The notes under the pieces are model-generated. The model was not told the DNA's origin. It saw only the letters and a program-made list of their open reading frames with translations, and made no database searches. This document shows, piece by piece, positions 4,073 through 32,549 of a stretch of 64,000 nt of DNA. This stretch comes from Prevotella sp. (GTDB lineage: Bacteria > Bacteroidota > Bacteroidia > Bacteroidales > Dysgonomonadaceae). Location: the NCBI GenBank assembly GCA_031285625.1, contig JAITVV010000043.1, positions 64,001 through 128,000 of the forward strand. The letters are read 5' to 3'. Within the stretch, counting starts at the first letter, position 1. The number at the start of each line of letters is the position of its first letter. The position numbers were made by a program, and so were the translations under genes.

Positions 4073-4531
4073 ATGAAGCAAATAGAAAAAATATCAGAAA
4101 ATAACAACTACACTGCAGCAAACATAGGAAATCTGAGTAAATTGATGGATTATTCTATGATCCACCCTAAAAATAAAAAGGAAGTCTTTGGTAAAGTCTT
4201 TCTGAAAGATGCAACCGGAGCCACAGGTACAGAAATATCATTTCAGGAACTTCCTCCGCAAACCGATTTATCCTATTTCCATATTCACAATGAAAATGAA
4301 GAAACTTATATCGTGCTAAAAGGGTCTGGAGATTTTCAGGTAGATGAAGACTGCTTTCCTATAACCGAAGGTAGTGTAATACGGGTTGCCCCACAGGGTA
4401 AACGCTCTTTACGAAATTCTTCGGATCAACCGATGGTTTATATGGTGATACAATCTAAGAAGGATTCATTAAATCAATATTCATCCGAAGATGGAGAAAG
4501 AGTCGAATACAAAGCTAAATGGGATAAGTAA
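4073..4531 (+). CDS. Cupin-domain protein
   Basis: YFHIHNENEETYIVLKGSG cupin motif 1 and EGSVIRVAP motif 2. Confidence 0.85.
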   Translation: MKQIEKISENNNYTAANIGNLSKLMDYSMIHPKNKKEVFGKVFLKDATGATGTEISFQELPPQTDLSYFHIHNENEETYIVLKGSGDFQVDEDCFPITEGSVIRVAPQGKRSLRNSSDQPMVYMVIQSKKDSLNQYSSEDGERVEYKAKWDK

Positions 4532-4609: not shown

Positions 4610-4639
4610 TTTGCAATATTCAAAAAAGTATTACTTTTG
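4610..4639 (+). promoter_or_regulatory. Bacteroidota sigma-ABfr promoter of the pheA leader
   Basis: TTTG at 4610-4613 and TACTTTTG (TAnnTTTG) at 4632-4639, about 30 nt before the leader ATG. Confidence 0.7.
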
Positions 4640-4668
4640 TATCCATATTCAAAACGAAGAATATTAGA

Positions 4669-4725
4669 ATGAAGAACTTTTCTTATACATACTTTTTCTT
4701 TTTTTACTTTTACTTTAAAAGGTAA
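4669..4725 (+). CDS. Phe/Tyr-rich attenuator leader peptide MKNFSYTYFFFFYFYFKR (pheL-like)
   Basis: ATG 4669 to TAA 4725, 18 codons of which 7 are Phe and 4 are Tyr; lies between a promoter and a terminator upstream of pheA. Confidence 0.9.
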   Translation: MKNFSYTYFFFFYFYFKR

Positions 4726-4778
4726 GACAGGATTTTGTATGAGAAAATTGGAATAAAATAAACAATATAAATATATAG

Positions 4779-4809
4779 AATCCTGTCAGGTATGACAGGA
4801 TTTTTTTTT
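4779..4809 (+). terminator. Attenuator terminator upstream of pheA
   Basis: AATCCTGTCA-ggta-TGACAGGATT hairpin running into a T9 tract; its 5' arm can pair alternatively with 4726-4740. Confidence 0.9.
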
Positions 4810-4834: not shown

Positions 4835-5677
4835 ATGAAAAGAGTTGCTATACAAGGGGGATTAGGCGCGTATCATGGGATAGCCGCAGAAAATTATTTC
4901 GGAGAAGAAGTAGAGATTGTTCCGTGCATTACTTTTCGCGACATTTTTACTACTATCAAAAAAGAACCGAATACCATCGGTATCATGGCTATAGAGAACA
5001 CAATAGCAGGCAGCCTTTTGGGTAACTATGAGCTGCTCAAAGAGAACAAATTACCGATTGCAGGAGAATACAAACAACGTATCTCACACTGTCTGGCCGC
5101 ACTACCGGGAAAAACTATCCACGATATCAAAGAAGTAGAGTCGCATCCGATTGCACTAATGCAGTGCACTCAGTTTTTAGATACACTTCCCGAAGTGAAA
5201 ATCATTGAGCATGAAGACACGGCTCTTGCTGCAAAAGATGTGGCTGAAAAGAATCTTTCGAACACAGCCGCCATATGTAGTACAAGAGCTGCCGAGATAT
5301 ACGGACTGAATATACTAGCGAGGGGAATTGAGACAAATAAGCACAATTTTACTCGCTTTCTTATTTTTGGTAATCCATGGGTAGTAGATGAGTTGCAAAA
5401 AGATGAAGTTTTAAATAAATCTTCTATCGTATTCACAACACCACATAGCGAGGGTAGTCTCTCTAAGGTGTTATCTGTATTTTCTTTCTATGGCATCAAC
5501 CTCACTAAGATACAATCACTCCCGATAATCGGTCGTGAATGGGAATATCAGTTTTATGTAGACCTTACATTTTCTGATCTGACCCGCTACAAGCAATCGC
5601 TACAGGCCATTCGTCCACTTACCAATGACCTGAAACTACTGGGAGAATATCCTGATGGCAAACAAAGCGAACTCTAA
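4835..5677 (+). CDS. pheA: Prephenate dehydratase with ACT domain
   Basis: VAIQGGLGAYH, ENTIAGS, SHPIALMQC, NFTRF, INLTKIQSLP. ATG at 4835 preferred because the 4808 TTG lies in the terminator T-run. Confidence 0.93.
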   Translation: MKRVAIQGGLGAYHGIAAENYFGEEVEIVPCITFRDIFTTIKKEPNTIGIMAIENTIAGSLLGNYELLKENKLPIAGEYKQRISHCLAALPGKTIHDIKEVESHPIALMQCTQFLDTLPEVKIIEHEDTALAAKDVAEKNLSNTAAICSTRAAEIYGLNILARGIETNKHNFTRFLIFGNPWVVDELQKDEVLNKSSIVFTTPHSEGSLSKVLSVFSFYGINLTKIQSLPIIGREWEYQFYVDLTFSDLTRYKQSLQAIRPLTNDLKLLGEYPDGKQSEL

Positions 5678-5735: not shown

Positions 5736-6896
5736 ATGAATATAGTACCCGCTGACCGCCTGAATATAGTAAGCGAATATTACTTCTCAAAAAAACTCAG
5801 GGAAGTTGCTGAAATGAATGCAGCAGGAAAGAATGTTATTAGTCTTGGAGTTGGAAGTCCCGACCTCCCACCCTCTGAAGAAACGACCAAAGCTTTTTGT
5901 GAATCTGTTGTAAAAAGTAACGTACACGGATATCAGCCGCATGTAGGTATACCCGAACTACGCAAAGCCTTTGCCGATTGGTATAAAAGGACATATAATG
6001 TTGTATTAGATCCTGCAAAAGAGATACAACCATTGATCGGTTCAAAAGAAGGGATTCTACATATTTCCCTTGCTTTTCTAAATCCGGGCGATAGCGTATT
6101 AGTGCCCAATCCGGGTTATCCGACTTATAGTTCTGTCAGCAAACTTGTAGGAGCCAATATACAGACTTACGACCTAGATGAAAATAATAACTGGCAACCC
6201 GATTTCGATGCATTGGAAAAGATGGATCTGTCTAATGTGAAGCTTATGTGGATTAACTATCCGAATATGCCAACAGGAGCGAATGCTACAATAGAATTAT
6301 TTGAAAAAATAGTTGCATTCGGTAAAAAACATAATATTGTGATAGCTCATGACAACCCGTACAGTCTTATTCTGAATGAGAATCCACTTAGCATTCTCCA
6401 GGTGGAAGGAGCCAAAGATATCTGTATCGAATTAAATTCGATGAGCAAATCACACAATATGCCGGGATGGCGTATCGGGATGGTAGCATCGAATGCACAA
6501 TTTATACAATGGATACTAAAAGTGCTCAGCAATATAGAAAGTGGAATACTAAAACCAATGCAGCTAGCTGCTGTAGCCGCACTAAACAACTCGCAAGAAT
6601 GGCATAAAGAAAACAACATCAGATTATATGCCAACCGCCGCCGGTTTGCAGAAGAAATAATGAGTGAATTAGGCTGTACTTTCGACAAAAATCAATCCGG
6701 AATGTTCCTTTGGGGTAGGATACCCGATAAATATAAAGGTAGCGAAGAGCTGGCTGATAAAATATTATATGATGCAAAAGTATTCCTTACTCCGGGTTTC
6801 ATTTTTGGAGGCAAAGGGGAAAGGTATATACGTATTTCCTTATGTTGCAGTGAAGAGATGTTGAGAGATGCATTGGAAAGAATTAAGAAAATGTAA
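5736..6896 (+). CDS. PLP-dependent class I/II aminotransferase (probably aromatic/prephenate)
   Basis: SLGVGSPD, NYPNMPTG, DNPY and SMSKSHNMPGWRIG (PLP lysine); operon context. Confidence 0.9.
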   Translation: MNIVPADRLNIVSEYYFSKKLREVAEMNAAGKNVISLGVGSPDLPPSEETTKAFCESVVKSNVHGYQPHVGIPELRKAFADWYKRTYNVVLDPAKEIQPLIGSKEGILHISLAFLNPGDSVLVPNPGYPTYSSVSKLVGANIQTYDLDENNNWQPDFDALEKMDLSNVKLMWINYPNMPTGANATIELFEKIVAFGKKHNIVIAHDNPYSLILNENPLSILQVEGAKDICIELNSMSKSHNMPGWRIGMVASNAQFIQWILKVLSNIESGILKPMQLAAVAALNNSQEWHKENNIRLYANRRRFAEEIMSELGCTFDKNQSGMFLWGRIPDKYKGSEELADKILYDAKVFLTPGFIFGGKGERYIRISLCCSEEMLRDALERIKKM

Positions 6897-7000: not shown

Positions 7001-7564
7001 ATGAAGTTTAAGCCAAGACATATTAAACTAAAGAACAACAAAACCGTTGAAATAAGGGAAGCTGTTATTGATGATGCACAAGGGCTTATAGATGCCGCTA
7101 AAAAGTATTTGAGAGACAGTGACTACCTGCTATCTTATGAGGAAGAATTCACCAATAGCCTTGAAGAGGAAGTCTCTTGGATAGGATCAATGGCTAATGA
7201 CAATAGCCTGTTGTTAGTCGCTGTCTATGAAGGTGAGATTTTATCCACATTCAGCCTGCACAGCAGACAACTGAAAAAGATAAAACATACTGCAGAAATA
7301 GCTATCGCTATATTAAAAGAATGGCAAGGTCTAGGTTTAGGATTTGCATTGTTCAATTCAGCTATTACATGGTGCAAGGAAAATACTTCACTCGAAATCT
7401 TATATCTTGACGTTTTTGCCGAAAATACAAATGCATATCATCTTTATAAGAAAATAGGATTTACAGAAGATGGCAGAAGAAAAAATTATTACAAGACCAA
7501 ATCAGATAAATATATAGACAATATAATGATGTCACTAAATATAAATCAAATAAACATTAAATAA
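7001..7564 (+). CDS. GNAT-family N-acetyltransferase (RimJ/RimL-like)
   Basis: EWQGLGLG acetyl-CoA loop and NTNAYHLYKKIGF motif B. Confidence 0.88.
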   Translation: MKFKPRHIKLKNNKTVEIREAVIDDAQGLIDAAKKYLRDSDYLLSYEEEFTNSLEEEVSWIGSMANDNSLLLVAVYEGEILSTFSLHSRQLKKIKHTAEIAIAILKEWQGLGLGFALFNSAITWCKENTSLEILYLDVFAENTNAYHLYKKIGFTEDGRRKNYYKTKSDKYIDNIMMSLNINQINIK

Positions 7565-7566
7565 AT

Positions 7567-8628
7567 ATGAAACTAGAATCTATTTTACTTCCCGGGGTTG
7601 ACCCGAAACGTCCCTTAGTGATAGCCGGCCCTTGTAGCGCCGAAACAGAAGAACAAGTGATGAACACTGCCAGACAACTGGCTGCCGATGGCATTAAAAT
7701 CCTTCGTGCCGGAATATGGAAACCCCGGACAAAGCCAGGTGGTTTCGAAGGTGTTGGTAGCGAGGGACTTGCATGGCTCAAAAAAGTGAAACAAGAAACA
7801 GGTATGTATGTATCTACCGAGGTTGCCACTCAGAAGCATGTTTACGAAGCACTTAAATATGGTATCGATATGCTCTGGATAGGCGCACGCACCACAGCAA
7901 ACCCTTTTGCCGTACAGGAAATCGCAGAAGCTTTGCAAGGTGTTGACATCCCTGTATTGGTTAAGAACCCTGTCAATCCCGATCTTGAACTTTGGATCGG
8001 AGCGCTTGAACGACTTAGCAATGTGGGACTTACTAAAATAGGTGCTATACACCGCGGATTCAGTTCATATGATAAAAAGATATACAGGAACCTGCCCCAG
8101 TGGCATATACCAATCGAATTGCAGCGCCGTTTCCCGGACCTGCCGATTATCTGTGACCCAAGCCATATCGGGGGAAAACGTGACCTCATACAACCTTTGT
8201 CTCAACAAGCAATGGACCTGAACTATGATGGACTGATTATAGAAACACATTGCGACCCTGAGAACGCCTGGAGTGACGCGGCACAGCAGGTAACACCTGT
8301 CAGACTGAAAGAAATACTGGCTTCATTAATTATCAGAGACGGAAAGCAATCCACTGAAGACCTTTCTGACCTTCGCCGACAGATTGACGAACTTGACGAT
8401 CAATTACTCGAACTCTTAGCCAAACGTATGCGTATTTCCTGTGAAATAGGTACTTTCAAGAAAGAACACAATATGACTGTAGTTCAGACTGACCGTTATG
8501 ACGAGATACTCAACAAACGTATAGCACAGGCTGAAGGGATGAAAATGAATCCGGATTTCATGCGTATTATACTTGAAGCAATCCACGAAGAATCTGTAAG
8601 ACAACAGGTAATTATATTGAACAAATAG
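7567..8628 (+). CDS. Bifunctional DAHP synthase (type I-beta) / chorismate mutase
   Basis: IAGPCSAE, RAGIWKPRT, WIGART, DPSHIGG; C-terminal LRRQIDELDDQLLELLAKRM chorismate mutase domain. Confidence 0.93.
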   Translation: MKLESILLPGVDPKRPLVIAGPCSAETEEQVMNTARQLAADGIKILRAGIWKPRTKPGGFEGVGSEGLAWLKKVKQETGMYVSTEVATQKHVYEALKYGIDMLWIGARTTANPFAVQEIAEALQGVDIPVLVKNPVNPDLELWIGALERLSNVGLTKIGAIHRGFSSYDKKIYRNLPQWHIPIELQRRFPDLPIICDPSHIGGKRDLIQPLSQQAMDLNYDGLIIETHCDPENAWSDAAQQVTPVRLKEILASLIIRDGKQSTEDLSDLRRQIDELDDQLLELLAKRMRISCEIGTFKKEHNMTVVQTDRYDEILNKRIAQAEGMKMNPDFMRIILEAIHEESVRQQVIILNK

Positions 8629-8645
8629 TAATATATAATATCATT

Positions 8646-8683
8646 AAGGACTAAAGGATATTCAATTCTTTTAGTCCTTTTTT
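8646..8683 (+). terminator. Intrinsic terminator of the aromatic operon
   Basis: AAGGACTAAAGGA...TCTTTTAGTCCTT followed by a T run. Confidence 0.8.
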
Positions 8684-8717
8684 ATTCACTATATAATACT
8701 CGTTCTATAAAATTAGT

Positions 8718-8729: not shown

Positions 8730-9179
8730 ATGAGACTGAAACAGATAATCACTTTAACACTATTGATCTTTGCTAATATATTTCTATTAGCACACTCTGT
8801 TTTACCTCATTCGCACCATGACGGGGTTGTCTGTTTTTCACTCGAAGAATTAACACACCAACATCATTGTTCTGACCATCATGATGATGTAGGATGCTGT
8901 TGCGAACATGGTAAAAATGGCCATCATCATTCTAACACCGAAGATTGTGATTTAAAGGATATCGTACTCCGACAACAGGACAATACACATGAAGATATAT
9001 TGCCTTGTCCCAACTGCCTTTTATTAGCGTATACACTGTATTCGCTAAACGAATTCTATATAGAAGCTCCACAATTTGGAGAGCGCCTCCGACAAAAACC
9101 TTATTTAGAAAACTATATCCCTCCCTTCGTAGGCTCTGTAAAAAGTCTGCGTGCTCCTCCTGTATCTTATTTCAGTTAA
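8730..9179 (+). CDS. His/Cys-rich exported protein with CxxC and C-terminal RAPP; candidate metal-sensing arrest peptide (DUF6769/DUF2946-like architecture)
   Basis: Hydrophobic N-terminus, 14 His and 8 Cys in residues 22-96 including CPNC, RAPP at residues 141-144 (9150-9161). Confidence 0.8.
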   Translation: MRLKQIITLTLLIFANIFLLAHSVLPHSHHDGVVCFSLEELTHQHHCSDHHDDVGCCCEHGKNGHHHSNTEDCDLKDIVLRQQDNTHEDILPCPNCLLLAYTLYSLNEFYIEAPQFGERLRQKPYLENYIPPFVGSVKSLRAPPVSYFS

Positions 9180-9289: not shown

Positions 9290-10570
9290 ATGAAACAATA
9301 TATAATTTATATCGCTTGTCTGTTGGCGATACTATGGGGATGCAACTCTAAACAAAAAACAGACGATCATACTGGGCATAATCACACTGAAGAATCTAAT
9401 GCCGGACACGACCACTCAAAAGATGGGCATACTCATGCCGATGGCGAAGAATGTAGTCATAATCATGAACATGAAGCAGAGCATAACCATGCACCCGGTG
9501 AAACATGTGACCATGACCATTCGACTGAGAATGTATCAGCAGAACATGGCGATGAAATAATGTTCAACCCCGAGCAGGCTAAATCAGCAGGTTTGGAAAC
9601 GGTAACAGTTCAACCCTCTACATTTTATCAGGTAATAAAAACCAGCGGTCAGATATTATCTGCTCAGGGTGATGAGGTAACTATTTCGGCTACATCGAGT
9701 GGCATTGTATCTTTCAACAAGCCATCATTAAATGAAGGCTTAGCGGTAAAAGGCGGTGAATCTCTTTTAAGCATTTCTTCCCGGAATATTGTAGATGGTG
9801 ACCCTGCTGTTAGGGCTAAATCAACTTATGATATTGCCCAACGTGAATTTCAGCGTGCCGAATCATTAATAGGCGATAAGCTTATTGCTGAAAAGGAATA
9901 CAACGAGATTAAGCTGAATTATGAAAATGCTAAGGTCGCTTATCAGGCGATAGCACAACGTTCAACAGCCAGAGGTGTGGGTATATCAACGCCGATTACC
10001 GGATTCATTAAAACAAAGCTGGTAAATGAAGGGCAATATGTAGAAGTAGGCCAAGCTCTTATGACGGTTACCCAAAACCGGAAGTTACAGCTTCGGGCAG
10101 ATGTTTCAGAACGTTATTATAAAGATTTGGGGAATATCACTTCTGCAAATTTCAAAACTCCTTATGATAAAACAGTTTATACCCTTGCCAACCTCAATGG
10201 CAGACTTGTTTCTTATGGTAAATCGTCCAGTAACCAGGAATATTACATTCCGGTCAATTTTGAATTTGACAATATAGGGCAGGTTATATCGGGTTCGTAT
10301 GTCGAAATCTATCTGTTGGGGCAGTCACGTAATAATGTAATATCTATTCCGGTATCGTCTCTTGTGGAAGAACAGGGGCTTTATTTTGTCTATCTGCAGG
10401 TTCACGAAGATGCTTATAAAAAGCAGGAGGTAACTCCTGGCACGAGTGACGGCAGTAACATAGAGATTCTTTCCGGTCTGAAAAAGGGAGATAAGGTTGT
10501 AAGTAAAGGCACTTACCACGTTAAGCTTGCTTCGGCTTCGGCATCTATTCCCCATGCTCATGAACATTAA
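9290..10570 (+). CDS. Heavy-metal RND efflux periplasmic adaptor (CzcB/CusB-like) lipoprotein with His-rich N-terminus
   Basis: Lipobox LWGC, His-rich tract, lipoyl/hairpin segment ISTPITGFI...EGQYVEVGQAL, C-terminal GLKKGDKVV and HAHEH tail. Confidence 0.9.
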   Translation: MKQYIIYIACLLAILWGCNSKQKTDDHTGHNHTEESNAGHDHSKDGHTHADGEECSHNHEHEAEHNHAPGETCDHDHSTENVSAEHGDEIMFNPEQAKSAGLETVTVQPSTFYQVIKTSGQILSAQGDEVTISATSSGIVSFNKPSLNEGLAVKGGESLLSISSRNIVDGDPAVRAKSTYDIAQREFQRAESLIGDKLIAEKEYNEIKLNYENAKVAYQAIAQRSTARGVGISTPITGFIKTKLVNEGQYVEVGQALMTVTQNRKLQLRADVSERYYKDLGNITSANFKTPYDKTVYTLANLNGRLVSYGKSSSNQEYYIPVNFEFDNIGQVISGSYVEIYLLGQSRNNVISIPVSSLVEEQGLYFVYLQVHEDAYKKQEVTPGTSDGSNIEILSGLKKGDKVVSKGTYHVKLASASASIPHAHEH

Positions 10571-29486: not shown

Positions 29487-30269
29487 TTATCCTTTTTCAG
29501 CAATATTACCTCTTACTTTAGTCAAAAATTTAAGCATCCCGGCACTATCTTTTTTCTCAATGATCTCTAAAAGATGTTTCAATTCAGCACGAATCCCTTC
29601 TACCTGAGCCGGAGTATATGGGTTGAAAAGAATTTCAGTCAAAAGAAAATCATCTTCAGACAGAAGCCCTTTTGCAATATTCATATGACGCTTAAATGTT
29701 GTACCGGGCGCATCCTGGTGTTTCATTACAGAAGCAAAGACAAGTGTAGATGCAAATGGTATGGACAGGGAATAAGCAATGGTTTCGTCATGCTCCTCAA
29801 ATGTGTATTCAAATACATTCAATTTGAGACTGCTGTATAAATCTTTAAAGAATATCTTCCCCCAATGATTTGACTCTGATATCACAATCGCACTCTGAGT
29901 ACTTAAGTCAGTCAAGTTAGCAAATGTAGGGCCAAACATCGGATGTGTAGAAGCAAAGGGCCGTCCGGTCTTCTGATAAAATTCTCTCAATCCGGTTTTT
30001 ACAGAGGCAATATCGGATAATATACATGCCTCATCCAGATAAGGGAGGACCATTTCAAAAGCCTGAATTGTATATTTCACAGTTGCAGCATTAATAACGA
30101 TTTCCGGATTAAATTCCTTTATCTCTTCCGGATTACTCATCCTCACCACATTATAGACAAACCGAAGACGTTTTGGATCTATATCGAAAACAGCAACTTC
30201 ATGATCGAAGCTCAATACATCTGTAAAAAAGGAACCCATCTTTCCGGCTCCAAGTATCAATATTTTCAT
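29487..30269 (-). CDS. tyrA: Prephenate/arogenate dehydrogenase
   Basis: MKILILGAGKMG Rossmann fold, SDIASVK, STHPMFGP, EEHDETIA. ATG at 30269. Confidence 0.9.
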   Translation of the reverse strand: MKILILGAGKMGSFFTDVLSFDHEVAVFDIDPKRLRFVYNVVRMSNPEEIKEFNPEIVINAATVKYTIQAFEMVLPYLDEACILSDIASVKTGLREFYQKTGRPFASTHPMFGPTFANLTDLSTQSAIVISESNHWGKIFFKDLYSSLKLNVFEYTFEEHDETIAYSLSIPFASTLVFASVMKHQDAPGTTFKRHMNIAKGLLSEDDFLLTEILFNPYTPAQVEGIRAELKHLLEIIEKKDSAGMLKFLTKVRGNIAEKG

Positions 30270-30289
30270 CTCTGTATTTTTAATTCGTG

Positions 30290-30297
30290 CAAAGATA
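30290..30297 (-). promoter_or_regulatory. -7 promoter element of tyrA
   Basis: TATCTTTG on the minus strand, about 20 nt upstream of the ATG and downstream of the fusA2 terminator. Confidence 0.65.
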
Positions 30298-30340
30298 CAA
30301 GATTGAAGGGAATCTTGGTCTATTTTTTCCTTATATAAAG

Positions 30341-30368
30341 AAAAAGCCGGCAAATAAATTTGCCGGCT
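30341..30368 (-). terminator. Intrinsic terminator of fusA2
   Basis: AGCCGGCAAAT/ATTTGCCGGCT inverted repeat with a T run on the minus strand. Confidence 0.85.
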
Positions 30369-30389
30369 CTATAAATATTCCAGATAATA

Positions 30390-32549
30390 TTAATCTTCGT
30401 CTTTCTGACTAGCTTCGTATTCTTTCAATAGCTTGTCCTGAACGTCGGAAGGGACAAGTTCATAACTTGCAAACTTCATCGTAAACGACGCACGACCTCC
30501 GGTTAACGAACTAAGTGAAATAGAATAGTTTGACATTTCTTTCAATGGTACTTTAGCATTTAATATCTCTATACCTTTATCACTTTCCATACCCATAATC
30601 ATGGCGCGACGATTTTGAAGATCACCCATTACATCACCCATCCTATCTGACGGAACGGATACAACTACATCATACACAGGCTCAAGAATCTTAGGACCTG
30701 CATTCTTAAATGCCTCGCTGAACGCATTACGTCCTGCCAGCATAAATGAGATTTCATTAGAATCTACCGGGTGCATCTTACCATCATAAACTACTACGCG
30801 TACATCACGGGCATATGAGCCGGTTAAAGGCCCTTGCTCGAGACGCGACATAATACCTTTGAGGATTGCAGGCAGGAAGCGGGCATCGATCGATCCACCG
30901 ACGATACTACTTACAAAAACCAGTTTACCTCCCCAATCTAAATCATAGACCTGAGTATCACGTGCCTGCACTTTAAACTCCTGTCCATTAAACTTATATG
31001 TTTCAGGCATTGGCATACCTTCAGTATAAGGCTCTACAACCAGATGTACTTCACCGAACTGTCCGGCACCACCCGATTGTTTCTTATGGCGATAATCGGC
31101 ACGTGCAGCTTTAGTGATCGTTTCACGATAAGGAATTTTCGGTTCTGAGAAGACAATCGAAATTTTATCGTTGTTTTCTATCCTCCATTTCAACGTTTTA
31201 AGATGGAACTCACCTTGTCCCGATACTATAAGTTGTTTCAATTCCTTCGAATTCTCAATAACCCATGTCGGATCTTCCTCACGCATACGCTGCAATACTT
31301 CATTCATTTTTTCAGTATCTTTCTCATTTTCAGCCTTAATTGCGCGACGGTATTTAGGATCAGGATATTTTATAAAATTGAACTTATTATCAACTCCCTT
31401 TGCATTCAATGTATTACCAGTACGAACATCTTTTAGTTTCACAGCTGCCCCGATATCTCCGGCAACAAGTTCTTCCACCTTTGTCCGTTGCTGCCCTGCC
31501 GGACAGAATATTTGTCCCATTCGTTCTTTAGAGCCCCTGTCTGCATTCAGTAAATCATCACCTTCATGTACTTTACCACTCATCACCTTGAAGTAAGAAA
31601 CTTCACCGACGTGCGGTTCCACTGTGGTTTTAAAGAAAAAGAGACTGGTTGGAGCATCCGATTCCGGTTTTATTTCCACCCCATTAGTATTTATTGGAGC
31701 TGGTAAATCGCGAACATAAGGAACTACATTACCAAGGAACTCCATTGTACGGCGTACACACATATCTTTTTCAGCAGACACACAGAATATTGGATACAGG
31801 TCTCTGTGAACCAATCCCCAACGGATACCCATACGCATCTCGTCTTCTGTAAGAGTTCCCTGATCAAAGAATTTCTCCATCAAAGATTCTTCATTTTCTG
31901 CAGCTGCCTCTACTAATTTCTGTTTTAGTTCTTTTGCTTTTTCCCTTTCTTCATCAGGGATATCAAGCACCTCAGGAGCTCCGCCTTCCGGCTTCCACCT
32001 GAGCATTTTATATTTTAAAATATCAATAACAGCATTAAAGCCTTCCCCACAGTTGATGGGATATTGTATCAAAACTGCTTTTTCACCATATTCGGCTTTC
32101 AGTTGTGATACTACATTGTCAAAATCAGCTTTTGGATGATCCAGCTGATTAACAATAAATATAACAGGTTTCTGTAATTTATGAGTATATCTTAATTGAT
32201 TAATAGTACCCACTTCCATACCATACTGGGCATTGAGTACCATGAGTGCAGTATCTGTCACATTAAGTGATGTAACTACGTTTCCTACAAAGTCATCTGA
32301 TCCCGGACAATCGATAAAATTCAGTTTGCGATTCATCCATTCCACAGAGAAAATGCTGGAAAAAACAGAATAACCGTATTCTTTTTCCACAGGGAAATAG
32401 TCCGAGACTGTATTTCCGTCTTTCACACTTCCTCTGCGTTTTATGACGCCAGCTTCATAGAGCATGGCCTCGGCGAGAGTGGTTTTGCCCGCTCCCGAAC
32501 TACCAAGAATAGCTATATTCTTGATTTCTTGAGTTTGGTAAGTTTTCAT
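30390..32549 (-). CDS. fusA2: Elongation factor G paralog EF-G2
   Basis: EF-G architecture (GAGKTT, GQGEFHL, YRETI, KKQSGGAGQFG, HPVDS) with divergent G motifs (YGYSV, DCPGS, NQLD) and a domain IV insertion. Confidence 0.88.
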   Translation of the reverse strand: MKTYQTQEIKNIAILGSSGAGKTTLAEAMLYEAGVIKRRGSVKDGNTVSDYFPVEKEYGYSVFSSIFSVEWMNRKLNFIDCPGSDDFVGNVVTSLNVTDTALMVLNAQYGMEVGTINQLRYTHKLQKPVIFIVNQLDHPKADFDNVVSQLKAEYGEKAVLIQYPINCGEGFNAVIDILKYKMLRWKPEGGAPEVLDIPDEEREKAKELKQKLVEAAAENEESLMEKFFDQGTLTEDEMRMGIRWGLVHRDLYPIFCVSAEKDMCVRRTMEFLGNVVPYVRDLPAPINTNGVEIKPESDAPTSLFFFKTTVEPHVGEVSYFKVMSGKVHEGDDLLNADRGSKERMGQIFCPAGQQRTKVEELVAGDIGAAVKLKDVRTGNTLNAKGVDNKFNFIKYPDPKYRRAIKAENEKDTEKMNEVLQRMREEDPTWVIENSKELKQLIVSGQGEFHLKTLKWRIENNDKISIVFSEPKIPYRETITKAARADYRHKKQSGGAGQFGEVHLVVEPYTEGMPMPETYKFNGQEFKVQARDTQVYDLDWGGKLVFVSSIVGGSIDARFLPAILKGIMSRLEQGPLTGSYARDVRVVVYDGKMHPVDSNEISFMLAGRNAFSEAFKNAGPKILEPVYDVVVSVPSDRMGDVMGDLQNRRAMIMGMESDKGIEILNAKVPLKEMSNYSISLSSLTGGRASFTMKFASYELVPSDVQDKLLKEYEASQKDED

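Follow-up and report, generated by a model that had tools for sequence, protein, structure and literature searches.

Our question was whether a short open reading frame crowded with phenylalanine and tyrosine codons, found ahead of pheA in a Prevotella sp. genome, belongs to a regulatory switch, and which amino acids that switch would sense. The window, the whole stretch of DNA that was analysed, is 64,000 nucleotides long. Judging from sequence, we consider it highly probable that the element is a classical ribosome-mediated transcription attenuator with a Phe/Tyr leader placed before pheA, and we are confident that ribosome-mediated attenuation by Phe would be part of its action. A response to Phe is very likely and a response to Tyr is likely.

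The leader frame runs on the forward strand from an ATG at 4669 to a TAA at 4723-4725 (4669-4725), and its 18 codons, read from the window sequence, give MKNFSYTYFFFFYFYFKR. Phe and Tyr together take up 11 of the 18 codons of this predicted peptide, and the seven Phe and four Tyr reported in the preliminary description of the locus are borne out base for base. Relatives keep the core of Phe and Tyr codons with synonymous exchanges of TTT for TTC and TAC for TAT. Upstream, the cupin gene stops at 4531, and a promoter-like box lies between that stop and the leader. The Bacteroides -7 consensus is TAnnTTTG, and a putative promoter of this type can be read ahead of the leader (Table 1), with a -7 box that is kept in the upstream regions of same-genus relatives. 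Transcription would then start near 4645 and give a 5' UTR of about 190 nt. For comparison, the prephenate dehydratase gene BT_3936 of B. thetaiotaomicron has a mapped transcription start and a 213-nt 5' UTR (Ryan et al. 2020, PMC7366714, supplementary file 3), and the TTACTTTTG box of the window leader occurs there as well, according to that file just upstream of the mapped start (PMC7366714). The same report mentions leader-like sORFs in general terms, and extracts of its supplements carry no sORF under BT_3936.

Table 1. Features of the leader, the operon behind it and the separate tyrA-like gene, in window coordinates
Feature	Position	Strand	Basis or remark
Putative Bacteroides-type promoter	-33 TTTG 4610-4613; -7 TACTTTTG 4632-4639	+	motif reading
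Regulatory Phe/Tyr codons	leader codons 4, 6, 8-16 = 4678-4716	+	sequence reading
Region 1, 5' arm of anti-antiterminator, inside leader ORF	4678-4689	+	pairs with 4736-4747 in minimum-energy folds
Inner hairpin	4697-4711 with 4718-4732	+	ViennaRNA fold of 4669-4750
Region 2	4726-4747: 4726-4741 to region 3 (antiterminator), 4736-4747 to region 1	+	sequence and fold
Region 3	4772-4788: antiterminator 3' arm 4772-4787, terminator 5' arm 4777-4788	+	ViennaRNA
Region 4 and T run	terminator 3' arm 4793-4804; nine T 4801-4809	+	pattern scan, ViennaRNA
pheA, prephenate dehydratase, first structural gene	4835-5677	+	Pfam PF00800, E 1.1e-54; NCBIfam prephenate dehydratase
Class I/II aminotransferase	5736-6896	+	Pfam PF00155, E 2.1e-67; best NCBIfam matches all below cut-offs
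GNAT acetyltransferase, inserted in operon	7001-7564	+	Pfam PF00583
Bifunctional DAHP synthase/chorismate mutase	7567-8628	+	PF00793 and PF01817
Strong operon-end terminator	8646-8684 (also read as 8646-8679)	+	13 pairs, then T run
tyrA-like prephenate dehydrogenase, 260 aa from ATG 30269	29487-30269	-	PF02153 over cut-off; NCBIfam PDH models below cut-offs

Three overlapping helices had been proposed for this stretch, and a check of the sequence and of its predicted folds finds all of them, two being longer than first described. Helix 1:2 pairs 4678-4689 with 4736-4747 over 12 bp with one G-U. Helix 2:3, proposed as 15 bp with two G-U (4726-4740 with 4773-4787), is there as such and becomes 16 bp in ViennaRNA (4726-4741 with 4772-4787), and helix 3:4, a perfect 10 bp between 4779-4788 and 4793-4802, extends to 12 bp (4777-4788 with 4793-4804). 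Region 2 starts at 4726, the first base past the TAA. Inside helix 1:2 there is also an inner hairpin, absent from the preliminary description, in which the U-rich Phe and Tyr codons of the untranslated leader pair with 4718-4732 and sequester the G+C core of region 2.

The energies of these structures are well beyond those of shuffled sequences. The 161-nt leader folds at -38.7 kcal/mol, whereas 200 shuffles of it give -21.9 +/- 3.2 (z -5.27) and none equals the native value; its minimum-energy fold consists of helix 1:2 and the terminator. The latter has 12 pairs, 4 of them G-C, and a loop of 4 by pattern scan, is worth -16.1 kcal/mol with a z of -5.63 in ViennaRNA, and has a T run ending 25 nt before the pheA ATG. 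For 4669-4750 the fold comprises helix 1:2 and, inside it, the inner hairpin (-20.5 kcal/mol, z -4.85), and the sub-helices each reach z values of -4.8 to -6.7 against shuffles in ViennaRNA. When the RNA is restricted to 4717-4809, which removes region 1 and keeps region 4 and mimics a ribosome covering region 1, the antiterminator forms instead at -21.7 kcal/mol, versus -16.1 for the terminator alone. Given these folds with and without region 1, the three structures are mutually exclusive in the order required by classical attenuation, and the earlier claim that adjacent helices overlap and exclude each other describes what behaves as an exclusive switch in folding.

The switch could work as follows. 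Transcription would begin near 4645 and a ribosome would start on the 18-codon leader. With charged tRNA-Phe and tRNA-Tyr plentiful, the ribosome would reach the TAA at 4723-4725 and cover the G+C core of region 2 at 4726-4735, a masking for which we used the commonly quoted size of the ribosome footprint. Region 3 would then be free for region 4, and ahead of pheA the polymerase would be released by the 12-bp terminator and its nine T. With Phe or Tyr scarce, the ribosome would stall on the Phe and Tyr codons of 4678-4716, masking region 1 and the inner hairpin and freeing region 2; if the stall fell within codons 8-13, the G+C core of region 2 would stay exposed. The 16-bp antiterminator (4726-4741 with 4772-4787) would in that case form first and pre-empt the terminator, with read-through into pheA, the aminotransferase gene, the GNAT gene and the DAHP synthase/chorismate mutase gene. 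If the leader were not translated at all, helices 1:2 and 3:4 would both form and transcription would terminate. We infer that the uORF is translated, how the ribosome footprint lies on the RNA, where transcription starts, and how the switch would answer to each amino acid. Public runs that contain this stretch are available as Logan contigs, and these contigs break within the low-complexity leader.

The element recurs in related genomes. Among the relatives a pheA match was present in 31 of 41 genomes, giving 30 loci, 29 of them with upstream sequence (the remaining one, L029, ends at a contig end), and a Phe/Tyr-rich uORF is present in all 29 readable regions. A further 58 upstream regions came from an even sampling of the order, 151 genomes of which 67 have pheA (G052, whose gene lies 70 nt from a contig end, was omitted), and 53 of these 58 carry such a uORF. 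The total for Bacteroidales is 82 of 87 regions, which are not independent relatives, 25 of the 87 being from one genus; no leader was found in the other 5. A strict scan for a perfect stem followed by at least 6 T in 8 recovers a terminator in 75 of the 82 leader-bearing regions, and the 7 in which it finds none may be misses of a scan that accepts only perfect stems.

The antiterminator is supported by comparison across families. In 69 of the 75 regions the best duplex that the segment after the leader can form with the 5' arm of the terminator outscores 95% of 200 shuffles (63 of 75 at the 1% level), and the same test passes in 44 of 50 regions outside the genus. This duplex overlaps the terminator 5' arm by at least 4 nt in every one of the 75. 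These terminators have 44 distinct 8-nt arm cores, and because the antiterminator persists over all this variety we conclude that regions 2, 3 and 4 change together across families. In the relatives the median start of region 2 is 6 nt ahead of the stop codon (range -35 to +10), and a terminating ribosome would therefore cover it there as well.

Within the genus the helices are also kept, with 92.9% and 93.6% of cells paired versus 35-64% when the arms are slid, and with 86.6% for helix 1:2. The preliminary description had proposed to align pheA upstream regions across the order in search of Phe/Tyr-rich uORFs and covarying stems. Across families that proposal turned out well, both for the uORFs (82 of 87) and for diverged 2:3 stems (69 of 75), and covariation within the genus did not, since a single pair of the antiterminator is changed on both sides and the score does not exceed that of shuffles. 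There are too few changes within the genus for covariation, and for this reason we relied on the shuffle test across families; the distant families fell out of register in the MAFFT alignment and were excluded from the pair counts. Comparative support for helix 1:2 appears weak. Measured against composition-matched shuffles, this helix gives p = 0.13 in the present genome and p <= 0.05 in 21 of 75 regions across taxa, with a median z of -1.2.

The element extends past the order. Taking 20 of the 22 matches from other orders of Bacteroidia, we find it in 18 of the 20 regions, whereas 1 region has it among 20 of the 78 matches in the phylum's other classes, which were chosen as one or two from each family. 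Its absence upstream of pheA in other classes is weak evidence, because pheA may not be the first gene of the operon there. The attenuation layout with helices 1:2, 2:3 and 3:4 that was first seen in this one locus is present and folds as a switch. Its uORF, terminator and overlapping antiterminator recur ahead of pheA, with diverged stem sequences, throughout the order and in other orders of the class. As a separate observation, the distance from T run to pheA start in one same-genus locus (L012, genome G004) is 109 nt, about 90 bases more than the rest, compared with 11-25 nt in other species of that genus.

What the attenuator would control is visible from the genes behind it. An operon carrying the shared steps of aromatic synthesis had been suggested, and Pfam places both a DAHP synthase/chorismate mutase and an aminotransferase downstream of the leader. 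The latter is likely an aromatic or prephenate aminotransferase, a substrate suggested by its context. The GNAT gene inserted in the operon is present also in genome G008 (locus L033, 2721-3269) and absent in G003 (locus L032). Apart from the operon's DAHP synthase/chorismate mutase, PF00793 matches only a KDO8P synthase (G000:C35:61865-62659, minus strand), and searches of the 94%-complete assembly for a type II DAHP synthase or a second CM_2 domain found none. Since no other DAHP synthase was found, the attenuator would gate the only recognisable entry to the shikimate pathway. Trp, folate and quinone precursors would then depend for their supply on basal read-through, the operon having the sole DAHP synthase/chorismate mutase found. 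Past the operon terminator lie two genes apparently unrelated to aromatic synthesis, one for a DUF6769 protein (8730-9179, plus strand) and one of the HlyD membrane-fusion type (9290-10570).

The more difficult question is whether Tyr is sensed along with Phe. Leaders with Tyr codons had been called uncommon; in this clade that is not so, and they prevail. Of the 82 leaders, 78 carry two or more Tyr codons, usually alternating with Phe. We compared Tyr content with the position of tyrA, calling an operon linked when a PF02153 gene lies within 9 kb downstream of pheA on the same strand, a proxy for being in the operon (44 leaders), and unlinked when at least 6 kb of contig follow and the prephenate dehydrogenase (PDH) gene lies somewhere else or was not found (8 genomes); 5 regions without a leader and 8 leaders whose contig ends too soon were left out. 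One Tyr codon or none in the leader core is seen in 1 of 44 linked operons compared to 4 of 8 unlinked ones (Fisher p = 0.0012), and the Tyr fraction also differs between the two groups (Mann-Whitney p = 0.0009), both values being without phylogenetic correction. This link indirectly supports real sensing of Tyr, and we regard a physiologically meaningful Tyr response of the leader as somewhat probable.

The alternative that survives best is that only tRNA-Phe charging matters and that the Tyr codons are filler or are kept for RNA pairing. The UAU and UAC of codons 6 and 8 do lie in or beside helix 1:2, yet the F-Y-F-Y-F alternation is held across families with different flanking RNA and through synonymous TAC/TAT changes. 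Phe codons outnumber Tyr codons by 7 to 4 in the leader, and a tyrA that sits elsewhere in this genome with its own promoter is also in line with a switch that answers to Phe alone; against this, the operon encodes steps common to Tyr synthesis (DAHP synthase, chorismate mutase, aminotransferase), at least 2 Tyr codons are present in nearly all leaders, and the Tyr-poor leaders cluster with unlinked PDH genes. A further point in its favor comes from another phylum. The aroR leader upstream of aroF in C. glutamicum is, like ours, a mixed Phe/Tyr leader (F-Y-F) by a DAHP synthase operon with attenuation by ribosome stalling, and in the review's summary of Neshat et al. 2014 it responds to limitation of Phe and reportedly not of Tyr (PMC11802643). 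As described there, it differs in having a single Tyr codon and in preceding aroF rather than pheA. Taking both sides together we think it unlikely that Phe alone is sensed.

In the present genome the tyrA-like gene lies outside the attenuated operon, by itself on the opposite strand and about 21 kb away. The terminator of an EF-G2 gene (30390-32549) precedes it, and the stretch ahead of it (30270-30392) supplies a -7 box of its own and a short 5' UTR. The genome is one of the 8 unlinked cases, yet it retains 4 Tyr codons. In two genomes of the same genus (G015 and G173) PDH is still linked to pheA, as in most of the order, where the gene likewise lies within 9 kb, and in G025 and G031 prephenate dehydrogenase is the last gene of the operon. 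Because the same-genus genomes keep the link, the separation of tyrA looks recent, and it seems that in this lineage a rearrangement took tyrA out of the attenuator's reach. Downstream of pheA, PDH is missing from G003 and G008 too. Leaders with Phe codons only or nearly so are found at four loci in different Bacteroidales families, L054 (G137), L066 (G107), L053 (G051) and L071 (G168), and in all four PDH is on another contig or was not found.

A second alternative does without the ribosome altogether. In this case a protein, a small molecule or uncharged tRNA would throw the switch and the uORF would be incidental, or else the terminated transcript would act mainly in trans as an sRNA, for which rnTrpL of Sinorhizobium, as far as it is described, offers a precedent of an sRNA derived from an attenuator. 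The start of the uORF is not one that sequence can confirm, and Bacteroidia are not known to have strong Shine-Dalgarno sites. Against such a mechanism, an ATG-to-stop frame rich in the codons of the operon's end products is kept in 82 of 87 and in 18 of 20 regions while other leader sequence diverges, and the stop codon lies always beside or inside region 2. No T-box, riboswitch or PyrR-type family matches above threshold either, and we hold a switch worked without the ribosome to be very improbable.

That a T-rich intergenic stretch and the ordinary terminator of the upstream cupin gene came together by chance can be dismissed almost completely and is effectively refuted by conservation, for although the genome is A+T-rich (37% G+C), TTT-rich frames are frequent and 18 aromatic-rich short ORFs exist, only the pheA leader among these has a terminator behind it, a promoter-like box separates it from the cupin stop, and the element is kept across order and class with the fold z-scores given above. 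The element is not due to chance. The 18 were counted among 61,073 short ORFs of the assembly as those with at least 7 of 8 aromatic residues (8 of 8 in two), and the terminator was sought within 130 nt downstream. The genome holds a second leader-peptide attenuator at G000:C30:106915-107051 on the plus strand, in which a 19-codon ORF containing a WWW run and its terminator lie upstream of an ORF like tryptophan synthase beta; it matches Rfam Bacteroid-trp at 51.3 bits (cut-off 49). This Trp leader was the only one to surface in the genome-wide scan, which at the thresholds used gave no terminator-bearing leader for His, Leu, Thr or Ile/Val.

With a ribosome-mediated Phe/Tyr attenuator as the preferred reading, it remains to place it among known systems. 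Rfam 15 has no family that reaches its gathering score on the leader, and the weak matches (miRNA, STnc370, Phe_leader, BTnc201/005, PyrR) align to hairpins only. Phe_leader (RF01859) scores 21.6 bits against a gathering score of 55, with an E-value of 0.47 and only the terminator aligned, and the window leader is not a member. E. coli pheL, which is not known to have a Tyr run, controls a single fused CM-PDT gene, whereas here the attenuator stands before an operon with the cell's only DAHP synthase/chorismate mutase. The two are alike in having a leader with Phe codons, three overlapping helices and a terminator just upstream of the prephenate dehydratase gene, as far as pheL-pheA is described in PMC3082878.

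The closest counterpart is in the same class. For pheA-aspC3 of F. psychrophilum, Table S7 of Guerin et al. 2021 (PMC9723704) annotates a 5' element as leader peptide attenuation, a separate transcribed segment with no Rfam hit, and the paper notes that Flavobacteriaceae have a conserved 5' element ahead of pheA, with clues to leader-peptide attenuation. Compared by description, that element and ours each consist of a short Phe- and Tyr-rich leader with a G+C hairpin and T run behind it, and each stands before pheA and an aminotransferase gene. The F. psychrophilum leader is 27 aa long, contains one Trp and is less dense in Phe and Tyr than the 18 codons of the window leader, and its authors label it, as a prediction, for phenylalanine biosynthesis only. 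The predicted elements in 18 of the 20 regions from other orders of Bacteroidia are a bridge between the two. The window has what marks the Bacteroidia type, an F/Y(W)-rich uORF and a terminator directly upstream of pheA. Bacteroid-trp (Rfam RF01692; Weinberg et al. 2010, PMC2864571) is, by its published description, another leader-peptide attenuator of this phylum and is also in this genome, differing in that it senses Trp, serves another operon and forms a separate sequence family.

In E. coli, thrL (Thr and Ile) and ilvL (Ile, Leu and Val) are multivalent leaders. Like the window leader, each serves a branched pathway and mixes codons for several of its end products, although they belong to other pathways and share no homology with the window leader. 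Attenuators in Bacteroidetes/Chlorobi are reportedly mentioned in the abstract of Vitreschak et al. 2004 (FEMS Microbiol Lett). Our literature search found no description of a Bacteroides pheA leader, and Vitreschak et al. 2004 or Lopatovskaya et al. 2010 (Mol Biol) may already list it.

We take the element to be a real attenuator of known mechanism that belongs to an uncatalogued family spanning the class Bacteroidia, and nothing in it is categorically new. The mechanism is textbook and a homologue is already in print; the gap is one of cataloguing and validation rather than of new biology. Bacteroides are dominant gut bacteria in which amino acid regulation is poorly charted. The element would be the main transcriptional control of the genome's only recognisable DAHP synthase/chorismate mutase, an enzyme whose product goes into Phe, Tyr, Trp, folate and quinone precursors. 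Conservation across the class is sufficient for the family to enter RNA family catalogues and annotation pipelines; at present such pipelines catch neither the uORF nor the switch. The association of Tyr codons with tyrA amounts to a natural experiment on the tuning of leader peptides.

One could go further and see the leader as a tunable, multivalent sensor of aromatic amino acids, in a class-wide family absent from Rfam, whose Tyr codon content (and in 19 of 82 leaders Trp codon content) evolves with the output of the operon, Tyr being lost when tyrA leaves, and which in this genome would let the charging of tRNA-Phe and tRNA-Tyr set the flux into the whole shikimate pathway. We give this extended proposal an even chance of being right. 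The Trp codons, which lie mostly in or beside the Phe/Tyr run, as for example in L026, L056, L060, L077 and L088, hint that some lineages may sense all three aromatic amino acids.
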